In this document: piece after piece, positions 61,153 through 64,000 of the stretch
Layout: the number at the start of each line of letters is the position of its first letter
Position numbering within the stretch: the first letter of the stretch is position 1
Source: a virus
Virus record (IMG/VR): IMGVR_UViG_3300022907_000007
Location: 1 to 64,000 of that record
Direction: 5' to 3' (one strand)
DNA: 64,000 nt
Program-made: the position numbers and the translations under genes
Notes under the pieces: model-generated
The model's database searches: none
What the model was told of the DNA's origin: nothing
What the model saw: only the letters and a program-made list of their open reading frames with translations

Positions 61153-61437
61153 ATGAAACTTACCAACCAACAAATTATCCTGACCGCGCAGGCTATTGCG
61201 CGTGTCGGCTACCCTGACGAGAGCGACTTGGACGCAATGGTTGAAGTCCTTCAGAAGCTCGATCAGGAGATTGACTTCAGCCTGCCGCTTGGATACCACG
61301 CAGACAATGTGGTGGGCGAGGCTGAGAACGATCTTGAGGTACAGCGGTGTGCGATCTACGCCGAGCGTGAAGAACAGGAGCGCAGGATCGCAGAGTACGA
61401 GTACGAGCTAGAGCCGGATGGCGAGGATGATGACTAA
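61153..61437 (+). CDS. Acidic hypothetical protein
   Basis: GGAGG RBS; many Asp/Glu. Confidence 0.6.
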   Translation: MKLTNQQIILTAQAIARVGYPDESDLDAMVEVLQKLDQEIDFSLPLGYHADNVVGEAENDLEVQRCAIYAEREEQERRIAEYEYELEPDGEDDD

Positions 61438-61457
61438 GGGGCTACGGCCCCTTTTTT
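61436..61457 (+). terminator. Rho-independent terminator
   Basis: AAGGGGC-TACG-GCCCCTTTTTT. Confidence 0.85.
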
Positions 61458-62682: not shown

Positions 62683-62702
62683 GCGGCCCTTTGGAGTTAA
62701 TC

Positions 62703-62915
62703 ATGAGAGCAGTAAAAATTACATCTGAAACCGCCGACACAATCGCTGACTTTATGTCCGAGTATCAGTCAACCCTTCACAACAAGCTCGTTGCTGAAGG
62801 TTTCGATCTAGAGGAGGTTTCCGAGATCATGAGCGCCTACATGTCCATCAACGGCAATCTAATCAATATGCTTGGCGAAGAGTCAGGCACAGGTTTCTCA
62901 ATCGAGATCAAATAA
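62703..62915 (+). CDS. Hypothetical early protein
   Basis: GGAG RBS before ATG 62703. Confidence 0.55.
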   Translation: MRAVKITSETADTIADFMSEYQSTLHNKLVAEGFDLEEVSEIMSAYMSINGNLINMLGEESGTGFSIEIK

Positions 62916-62918
62916 GGT

Positions 62919-62948
62919 TTGACAGGAAATAATTTAAAGGAGTAAGGT
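62919..62948 (+). promoter_or_regulatory. Putative sigma70 promoter
   Basis: TTGACA-N18-TAAGGT; first predicted helix starts 6 nt downstream. Confidence 0.55.
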
Positions 62949-62953
62949 TTAAG

Positions 62954-63328
62954 ACAGTGCCGGACGGGGTGTGCGAAGCCCCTAGCGAACCGGACTGAGA
63001 AACAGGAATAAACCCGTGACCGCACTCCGGCACTGGTTCCAATTGTGACCGAAACAGTATTCTCGGTCAACATTCCTAGAGTCTCATTCTGTATCGTTAG
63101 GGTTCATCCCGTACCGTTAAAGTACGCTCAGTGTCGTACAGCACCAGAAAGCACGATTGCAACCCAACCTTTGAGGACGGGACAAACAGCGTTAGAGGTG
63201 ATCCGCCTACGGGCAGGGACGGTTGAGCTACCGAGTCGAGATACCCACGACTAAAAGCACTGCTGATTACTGAGGTTGCATGGACGATAGCGTACCGGAT
63301 GGACAGGGATCACCCTACGTCCTCTAAA
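62954..63328 (+). ncRNA. Candidate large structured non-coding RNA (family unknown)
   Basis: No convincing ORF; many 6-10 bp complementary pairs including long-range ones. Confidence 0.5.
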
Positions 63329-63359
63329 TGACAACTATGACCAAAATTTGAGGTGACTC

Positions 63360-63812
63360 ATGGGTGAGCTAGACCCAAGAACATTTGTTGGAGAAACAGC
63401 GGAAGATTTGCAAAATGAAATCGCCGTGATTGAGAAATTCTGCAAAAAGTTTAACGTCAAGTATTTCAAGATGAGTAAATATGAACGAGTCGATTTTGTT
63501 CTGTACAGAGGCGAAGCACACAAAAGGCATGTTGTTGCAGTTGCTGAAGTCAAAACTAGATACGATCATAATTTTTTTGATTGGGGCGATCTTTTTTGCC
63601 CACTACATAAAAAAGCTCATTGCGTAATGTACGCAGAAGCAATCAATGTTCCTGCGTTCCTGATCAGTAAGCACAACGATGGTATTTTTTATGTTGATAT
63701 GCGAGAGCCATTTCATGATTGCAGGATCATCAAAGACCCAAGAAGCCGCAATGATTCGGATGAAACACCATGCGTAACTTGGATGGGCGATCTAATAAAA
63801 GAGCTAACATAG
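63360..63812 (+). CDS. PD-(D/E)XK nuclease-fold protein
   Basis: VDF...AEVKTR motif. Confidence 0.6.
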   Translation: MGELDPRTFVGETAEDLQNEIAVIEKFCKKFNVKYFKMSKYERVDFVLYRGEAHKRHVVAVAEVKTRYDHNFFDWGDLFCPLHKKAHCVMYAEAINVPAFLISKHNDGIFYVDMREPFHDCRIIKDPRSRNDSDETPCVTWMGDLIKELT

Positions 63813-63822
63813 GATCAAGAAT

Positions 63823-64000
63823 ATGCAACTAAGACCACATCAAGAACTGGCGATACAGATGCTGAGAGACAGTCTGGCGTCAGGCAAGAAAAGACCACTG
63901 CTTGCGGCTCCATGCTCATTCGGCAAGACAATTACAGCGGCGGCTATGCTCAAGTCAGCACTCGACAAAGGTAAACGCGGCATCTTCATCTGTGATCGCA
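63823..64000 (+). CDS. Superfamily II (DEAD/ResIII-like) helicase, truncated by window end
   Basis: MQLRPHQ Q-motif and APCSFGKT Walker A. Confidence 0.8.
   Translation, partial: MQLRPHQELAIQMLRDSLASGKKRPLLAAPCSFGKTITAAAMLKSALDKGKRGIFICDR

Follow-up and report, generated by a model that had tools for sequence, protein, structure and literature searches.

A large, doubly pseudoknotted RNA family ahead of the helicase gene in uncultured estuarine and marine phages

Why would a phage with an otherwise compact genome keep several hundred base pairs free of genes just ahead of its helicase? The question is raised by IMG/VR virus record IMGVR_UViG_3300022907_000007, a record of 74,742 bp whose first 64 kb are the stretch analyzed here (the window). 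A gap of 444 bp (62916-63359) separates a 70-aa open reading frame (ORF) that stops at 62915 from the gene for a PDDEXK_14 nuclease-like protein that begins at 63360. An initial annotation made from the letters of the window had pointed out this gap in a compact genome and proposed that it holds an undescribed, promoter-led, large, multi-helix, and possibly pseudoknotted RNA. The proposal stands on all of these counts: covariation, promoter boxes, and the lack of an Rfam match agree on such an RNA, truly pseudoknotted, on the + strand. We regard it as virtually certain that the element (~390 nucleotides [nt], ~62955-63340, + strand) is non-coding and doubly pseudoknotted and belongs to a real structured RNA family.

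The comparative case begins with relatives. Searching with the PDDEXK protein yielded three near-identical IMG/VR contigs and one TARA scaffold (L006). In the scaffold the gap is ~70% identical, its core is strongly conserved, and compensatory changes can be seen. A core 17-mer, GGGACGGTTGAGCTACC, matched 32 IMG/VR stretches, 31 of which carry the entire element at 70-98% identity (the other, L022, is a chance match), and a second, independent pattern recovered the same set. Besides diverged copies found by covariance models, the carriers are these 31 IMG/VR contigs and the TARA scaffold. A helicase alignment was then used to fetch the loci of 80 of the 315 IMG/VR relatives of the downstream superfamily 2 (SF2) helicase. 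Upstream of this same helicase, as the annotation had suggested looking, covariance model R1 (the core) found the element in 47 of the 80 loci, with bit scores from 185 down to 37. Model R2 (the Py/Px domain) recovers R1's set, and model R3 (the 5' domain) finds 36 loci, the E-values being rough owing to a shortened calibration.

All carriers are syntenic relatives within one clade of uncultured phages from estuaries and the sea. Contigs whose flanking genes diverge more are still 97-98% identical in the gap, and the core can still be recognized at ~60% helicase protein identity. A scan of 185,579 prokaryote genomes with the 17-mer gave 19 hits, none with any further similarity; this is the number expected by chance, so no prophage or host was identified. 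Likewise, blastn of the region, the core, and a diverged member against 50,697 GenBank phage records returned chance matches of 24-27 nt only.

Aligned, these sequences back ten predicted helices by covariation, with 97-100% of cells paired and many compensatory changes (P1, P1a, P2, Pb, Pd, Py, Px, Pf, Pg, and Pe; Table 1), together with two predicted pseudoknots, one between the Pb loop and 63151-54 and the other created where Pd crosses Px and Py. The second lies in the 3' domain (~230 nt). There, the long-range helix Pd encloses the 5' strands of Py and Px plus the hairpins Pf, Pg, and Pe, and its 8/8 pairs all have compensatory changes, with up to 5 pair types per position and 99.1% of cells paired (44 sequences). 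Py is 100% paired in the 44 sequences, AU having become GC in 10 and GC having become UA in 1. It is also 100% paired in a structure-blind alignment of 21 diverse members, where it reads GAGGGC/GCCCUC in 8 and GAUGGC/GCCAUC in 1. Px, again 100% paired with 4/6 pairs covarying, occurs in the forms GGUGAU/AUCACC, GGUGAC/GUCACC, GGCAAC/GUUGCC, and GGUGCC/GGCACC. Because Pd interleaves with Px and Py, the 3' domain is a true pseudoknot.

The hairpins within Pd behave in the same way, with covariation in 4-5/5 pairs of Pf, 3/4 of Pg, and 4/5 of Pe (44 distinct sequences). Taken with Pd, they have 97.6% of cells paired and 19/22 pairs changed on both sides, and their score of 0.587 compares with 0.145 for shuffled and at most 0.07 for slid controls. 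Hairpin Pb and its loop pseudoknot, PK1, were scored on a structure-blind MAFFT alignment of 21 diverse sequences, in which their cells are 100% paired and 5/5 and 2/4 pairs covary, respectively (covariation score 0.696, versus 0.225 shuffled and at most 0.16 slid). Overall, pairing falls to 20-55% in the shuffled and slid controls and exceeds 97% in more than 40 distinct sequences. A scan of all column pairs in the MAFFT alignment A5 (22 close members) singled out P1, P1a, Pb, Pd, and Pe, and it also brought up the pairing of the Pb loop with a downstream AAAGCAC, with stacked pairs changed on both sides.

In the 5' domain, P1 is 96.8% paired with 5/9 pairs covarying and P1a is 100% paired with 2/4 covarying, as read, like the 44-sequence figures above, from model-fitted alignments of related sequences, a kind of alignment that favors the model. 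An alternative pairing of P1 with the first CCGG copy was rejected by eye, its outer pairs lacking covariation. The P2 hairpin sits at the same place in 8/8 homologues with unrelated stem sequences and is shortened or missing in some diverged members. Three nearly invariant single strands surround the 3'-domain knot, and Pf carries a cUACGg tetraloop. At three loci (L013, L018, and L031) the UACG loop is swapped for a 38-nt extra stem-loop (GUCGGAAUAAAA...UUUUAUUCGGAU; A5 columns 322-359); variable-length insertions of this sort are typical of solvent-exposed RNA helices. Finally, the core alignment A8 contains ~34 G-U cells, and since these would be C-A mismatches on the opposite strand, the + strand is the one that folds.

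Table 1. Coordinates of the predicted RNA features and of the sites and genes next to them (window numbering)
Feature	Position	Strand	Basis or remark
Sigma-70-like promoter: -35 TTGACA 62919-24, 18-nt spacer, -10 TAAGGT 62943-48	62919..62948	+	
5' domain: P1 (62956-64/63026-34) around P1a (62966-69/62979-82) and a conserved internal region (UAGCGAACCGG ... ACCCGUGACCGCAC)	62956..63034	+	Model R3, 36 loci
P2, sequence-variable hairpin, core TGACCGA 63046-52/TCGGTCA 63063-69	63044..63072	+	
Inter-domain linker, pyrimidine-rich, poorly conserved	63073..63113	+	Length and sequence vary; C/U-rich in most members
Pa, 5' strand CCGU 63114-17, tentative partner AUGG 63280-83	63114-17/63280-83	+	RNAalifold prediction only, G-U variation
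Hairpin Pb (63122-26/63135-39) and PK1 (Pb loop 63131-34/GCAC 63151-54)	within 63114..63154	+	
Pd, long-range helix (63158-64 + C63165/63274-80 + G63272)	63158..63280	+	
Py (GAGGAC 63173-78/GUCCUC 63319-24) and Px (GGUGAU 63197-202/AUCACC 63309-14)	63173..63324	+	Both cross Pd
Near-invariant single strand GGGAC/UAAACAGCGU	63179..63192	+	21 diverse members
Hairpins Pf (63203-07/63212-17, UACG loop), Pg (63220-23/63230-33), Pe (63234-38/63248-52)	63203..63252	+	
Near-invariant single strand (C/U)UGCUGAU(U/G)AC	63256..63270	+	Alignments
Conserved 3' tail UAAAUGACAACUAUG	63325..63340	+	Alignments; tail common to type C relatives
Repeats behind the mimicry of Py and Px by the ribosome-binding site	63164-63176/63341-63353; 63192-63201/63347-63356		Repeat search
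PDDEXK_14 nuclease-like protein, first downstream gene in this phage	63360..63812	+	Pfam PF24579, E 1.8e-13
SF2 helicase, start (ResIII + Helicase_C, 502 aa; end at genome position 65331)	63823..64000	+	

The fold agrees in large part with the helices that the initial annotation had picked out by complementarity. All of its segments are present where it put them (by reading the sequence, with the three longest also turning up in a repeat search), and six of its pairings are upheld by covariation. These are CAGTGCCGGA/TCCGGCACTG, which is P1; the GGGG/CCCC of its GGGGT/GCCCC hairpin, which is P1a; TGACCGA/TCGGTCA, the P2 that keeps its place while its sequence changes; TGCAACC/GGTTGCA, which is Pd; the GGTGAT/ATCACC of a helix at 63197-204/63307-14, which is Px; and the GAGGAC/GTCCTC of GAGGACG/CGTCCTC, offered there as an alternative pairing, which is Py. 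Three others (GTGCG loop/CGCAC, TCCCGT/ACGGGA, and GTACGCT/AGCGTAC) look like shuffled controls, being jointly 49.2% paired versus 49.1% for shuffles. TTAGAGG/CCTCTAA must be given up as well: it shares the CCUC strand with Py and excludes it, and the compensatory changes track Py instead. The Pb hairpin and the pseudoknot of its loop (63131-34/63151-54) were absent from the earlier list.

Folding energy, which the annotation had put forward as a check, turned out unremarkable, with minimum free energy (MFE) z-scores of just -1.74 (+ strand), -2.13 (- strand), and -1.17 (3' domain); it is the comparative data that carry the case instead. We do not count these weak scores against the structure because MFE folding cannot represent pseudoknots.

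Could the gap belong to something already known? Rfam 15 (4,227 models, among them RNase P, tmRNA, group I/II introns, riboswitches, GOLLD, ROOL, OLE, HEARO, and raiA) gave no match at the gathering threshold in the whole window and nothing in 62700-63500 at E<=10 with permissive filters, and ARAGORN found neither a tRNA nor a tmRNA. The earlier remark that the region lacks hallmarks of tRNA, tmRNA, RNase P, and group I/II introns was therefore apt, no such model having matched. A group I intron is further contradicted by flanking ORFs that are independent and variable between loci, by the promoter directly upstream, and by the strand order, which here runs Pd, Py, Px, three hairpins, Pd', Px', Py' versus P3-P4-P6-P7-P3'-P8-P7' in the intron. 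Nor does a conserved ORF explain the gap. In near relatives, indels of 1 nt and 2 nt, among them a 1-nt insertion after 63178, disrupt its only ORF (63045-63254, 69 aa), for which neither Pfam nor PHROG gave a match; a mini-ORF at a conserved AUG in the tail was likewise rejected, the codon being AUU in many members. The resemblance between GGAUCACC...CCUC and the 3' end of 16S rRNA is not maintained across the family. An antiterminator of the HK022 put type was also considered and rejected: 9 terminator-like sites lie downstream versus 10.7 +/- 3.2 in shuffles, none of them strong.

On this comparative evidence, the element is the founding example of a large-RNA family of which we found no trace in Rfam or in the GenBank phage records and no description in the papers searched. 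The closest survey in source and kind of evidence is that of structured RNAs in IMG/VR (Fremin et al. 2023, PMC10690425), which reports 8,495 unnamed candidates with an average length of 67 nt; the text of that paper makes no mention of helicase-associated or 400-nt pseudoknotted RNAs, and fragments of the element may be among those candidates. Two 2026 language-model surveys cover other RNAs.

The family itself is modular. Judged from the aligned loci, it is a superfamily whose members have the 5' domain and the 3' tail in common and differ in the 3' domain, of which there are at least three predicted, interchangeable types (A, B, and C); lengths range from ~390 nt here up to ~480 nt in the sister types. 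Type B (L063:1-550 and L067:2225-2800) retains the promoter, 5' domain, P2, and linker and has its 3' domain replaced by ~350 nt of non-coding sequence common to both loci, with compensatory changes of its own (GGACTAGAT..ATCTAGTC versus GGATTGA..TCAATCC). Type C, ~480 nt upstream of the helicase (L094:2507-2989, L126:2493-2983, and L110:2032-2495), has a 5' domain of like layout (GUGUUGG...CCAACAC around GAGG...CCUC), a GAUGG/CCAUC pair, the same 3' tail UAAUGACAACUAUUGCCUGAAGAAA, and a motif, GUACAAACAUAGU, that is related to the 63179-63192 single strand; it is probably a diverged sister family. The sister loci L063, L094, L067, and L136 have no Rfam match either.

What does such an RNA do? 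Its position points to a leader working on its own operon. TTGAC(A/G)-like and TAnnnT boxes recur at a constant distance 5' of P1 in the alignments of close and diverged members, and because this distance is fixed, transcription is predicted to start at ~62955, the foot of P1. A simple consensus promoter scan made no call at 62919-62948, where the -10 box matches just 3/6 positions. At the other end, the next gene, whatever it is, has its purine-rich ribosome-binding site (RBS) and start codon within 10-25 nt of the tail at all loci inspected, and a terminator scan found no terminator-like site in between. The element thus has the position of a leader, in the 5' untranslated region directly ahead of an ORF and just downstream of a promoter-like site.

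Two features of the surroundings are constant, namely, that the element leads a DNA replication/recombination operon and that it adjoins the helicase gene. In L136 (2437-2840, - strand) and likewise in L138, the element points the opposite way from the helicase and leads a Sak-YqaJ-SSB operon; even there, its strand is the sense strand of the operon behind it. The PD-(D/E)XK protein is no constant feature. Across more than 30 related loci the slot directly behind the RNA is filled by PDDEXK_14, by unrelated ORFs of 99-208 aa, or by the helicase itself, and this variability, along with the inversion, lends no support to the specific partnership of RNA and adjacent nuclease-like protein that the annotation had envisaged. 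The slot (63360-63812 here, and its equivalent in L007-L038) resembles an accessory-gene hot spot between RNA tail and helicase.

With the promoter at a fixed distance, a start codon 10-25 nt after the tail, and no terminator between them, we consider it quite probable that the RNA is made as the leader of its operon. It would be transcribed as the promoter-proximal part of the replication/recombination message and would fold as an autonomous module. It might then act in cis and control how well the first cistron is translated, how the operon mRNA is processed or how long that mRNA lasts, or more than one of these; a ligand or a protein might set off the response. Such a cis-regulatory mechanism is our tentative choice, and we would put it somewhat short of an even chance.

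Several observations weigh against it. A conserved expression platform was not found: there is no terminator, and the one suggestive feature, an RBS region (63341-56, CCAAAAUUUGAGGUGA) that repeats the 5' strands of Py and Px and could compete for the CCUC strand in this phage, is confined to the window, the RBS of the relatives being GAAGAAA or GGAGAAA. A 3' domain that can be swapped for the unrelated-looking type B or the diverged type C would make a better specificity module than ligand sensor. To our knowledge, 390 nt with two pseudoknots is far above any known leader of this kind. The evidence that the RNA is made, moreover, consists of assembled contigs only, with possible DNA carry-over.

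That evidence comes from 19 RNA-library runs (salt-marsh, estuary, and marine studies) that contain part of the stretch. In the four runs examined, assembled contigs span the element, and several short contigs stem from other family members. In two estuary metatranscriptome assemblies, the k-mer depth of the element contig is 27 and 24 versus 7 for the helicase contig, and one estuary element contig ends at 63326, the 3' edge of the fold. We take this as a weak hint of transcription, perhaps at higher abundance, the depth being a per-contig value with possible DNA carry-over.

The same figures are also a weak hint of an RNA that leaves its operon. The leader might be cut off or be unusually stable and then work in trans, as a ribozyme, as a scaffold or partner of a protein such as the SF2 helicase, as a multimer like ROOL and GOLLD, or as a decoy against host defense. 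Large, highly conserved pseudoknotted RNAs are rare, and those solved are mostly ribozymes, cores of ribonucleoproteins, or unusual regulators; the size, the two pseudoknots, and the invariant strands around the knot are typical of ribozymes and ribonucleoprotein RNAs rather than of simple leaders. The variable accessory genes directly behind the RNA would fit as well, as would L136, where a 9-bp GC-rich hairpin and a U-rich run lie ~70 nt behind the element. However, the L136 hairpin fails a simple terminator scan and most members lack a terminator, contig depth cannot rank genes, and RNA libraries may contain DNA. ROOL and GOLLD, large ornate RNAs seen by cryo-electron microscopy (PMC12286853), are alike in being large, intricate, often borne by phages or prophages, so far without an assigned function, and found through covariation in metagenomes. 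They differ in being 580-800 nt long and located near tRNAs, whereas the RNA described here has 390 nt, lies as an operon leader beside a helicase gene, and shows no covariance-model match at E<=10. On balance, we think a processed, trans-acting RNA unlikely.

The neighboring genes bring up a third reading, in which the RNA starts DNA synthesis. The record encodes SU10-like capsid and adaptor genes, a GH108 endolysin, Sak, YqaJ, NinB, and NinG, and the gap is followed in order by the PDDEXK_14 protein, the SF2 helicase, a 131-aa protein, and the small and then the large terminase. The sole strong intrinsic terminator on the + strand of the early region (61436-61453; AAGGGGCUACGGCCCCUU then UUUU) sits immediately 3' of a 94-aa ORF (61153-61437). 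In the module, Pfam recognized nothing beyond Sak, YqaJ, NinB, NinG, PDDEXK, the SF2 helicase, and, weakly, a CHC2 zinc ribbon. The zinc ribbon (E 0.002) is all that was recognized in the 131-aa protein (genome 65288-65683; L039:3289-3684), in which Pfam found no catalytic domain of a primase. Nor did any Pfam match in the module point to an initiator, a polymerase, or a primase core; several small ORFs there are family-less and may include novel initiators that were missed.

In Vibrio phage 1.233.A (L139, MG592597.1), a distant relative in culture whose helicase is ~35% identical, the orthologous helicase gene is preceded by the gene for a winged helix-turn-helix (wHTH) "replication protein," and three 17-nt direct repeats (ACGACAGAACCTGTCGC; 1936-2061) lie upstream of that gene and run into its start. 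They are probably an iteron origin at the position that the RNA occupies in the present family.

An RNA in this position might act as a primer or origin RNA in the manner of ColE1 RNA II, with a persistent hybrid, or loading of host replication proteins, near its 3' end starting DNA synthesis. The ColE1 transcript folds, starts from a promoter, extends over several hundred nt, and belongs to a replicon without its own initiator. The likeness lies in the promoter-led folded transcript and in variant types that could set specificity; the interchangeable 3' domains A, B, and C resemble specificity or incompatibility determinants. That Pfam recognized no initiator, polymerase, or primase domain in the module and that the RNA stays beside the helicase even when inverted also favor this reading, as does the arrangement in the Vibrio phage. 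On the other side, no antisense RNA I unit was found here and no RNA I-like promoter above chance; the - strand has a single promoter-like site, located in the P2 palindrome, which is fewer than in shuffled sequence. GC skew is flat with no inflection, the tail is followed by an RBS instead of an AT-rich region for unwinding, the small ORFs may hold novel initiators that Pfam missed, and RNA II lacks the pseudoknotted, sequence-invariant core of the present RNA. We hold an RNA II-like primer to be rather unlikely. A bolder pair of proposals, that the RNA itself is the initiator or primer of phage replication in place of wHTH protein and iterons, its 3' domains setting replicon specificity, or else that it is a new large ribozyme acting on phage nucleic acids, we likewise rate as quite unlikely.

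Could the folded molecule be DNA? The initial annotation had allowed for a folded single-stranded DNA (ssDNA) origin, and compensatory changes would indeed preserve ssDNA hairpins too. The element lies in a replication/recombination module beside a helicase gene, to which this phage adds a nuclease-like gene, and candidates would be a loading site for nuclease or helicase or an origin of the sso or pas kind. Origins of the ssoA type belong to rolling-circle replicons that encode Rep, and their folded ssDNA displays an RSB site and a CS-6 (TAGCGT/A) loop. Here, the conserved UAGCG at 62983-87 lies in a junction, outside the hairpin loops, and no rolling-circle Rep gene was found among the neighbors scanned. 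The promoter is conserved exactly 5' of P1, the cUACGg tetraloop and the two pseudoknots are typical of RNA, the G-U pairs occur on the + strand only, the sequence appears in metatranscriptome contigs, and the element always uses the strand that is sense for the operon behind it, inverted copies included. An ssDNA signal is, on these grounds, highly improbable. The chance that the element has no dedicated function at all, being a long 5' untranslated region or a recombination scar conserved through recent common descent, is close to negligible: carriers confined to syntenic relatives in one clade and unremarkable MFE z-scores would allow it, but the element outconserves its flanking genes, pairing is held through many double changes, and the three unsupported rival pairings, an internal negative control, behave like shuffles.

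Returning to the leader reading, phages offer several precedents for RNAs embedded in leaders. The P4 CI RNA, the P1/P7 c4 RNA, the T4 gene 32 operator pseudoknot, and HK022 put measure 30-80 nt and come from the 5' leader of the operon they control; among such RNAs, heteroimmune variants occur, and translation of a replication or recombination gene is in some cases controlled by a pseudoknot. The RNA described here is five to ten times larger than these, has no downstream target repeats or excess of terminators, and gives no sign of an autoregulating protein. Of these precedents, T4 gene 32 is mentioned in the IMG/VR survey (PMC10690425).

These results place a structured RNA at the hinge between the recombination and the helicase genes of uncultured estuarine and marine phages. 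For structural work it offers a new and tractable RNA fold. For phage biology it may provide a handle on how minimal replication modules, those without a recognizable initiator, polymerase, or primase core, are started or controlled. And even if the RNA should turn out to be just a leader, no phage leader known so far would come close to it in size and complexity.

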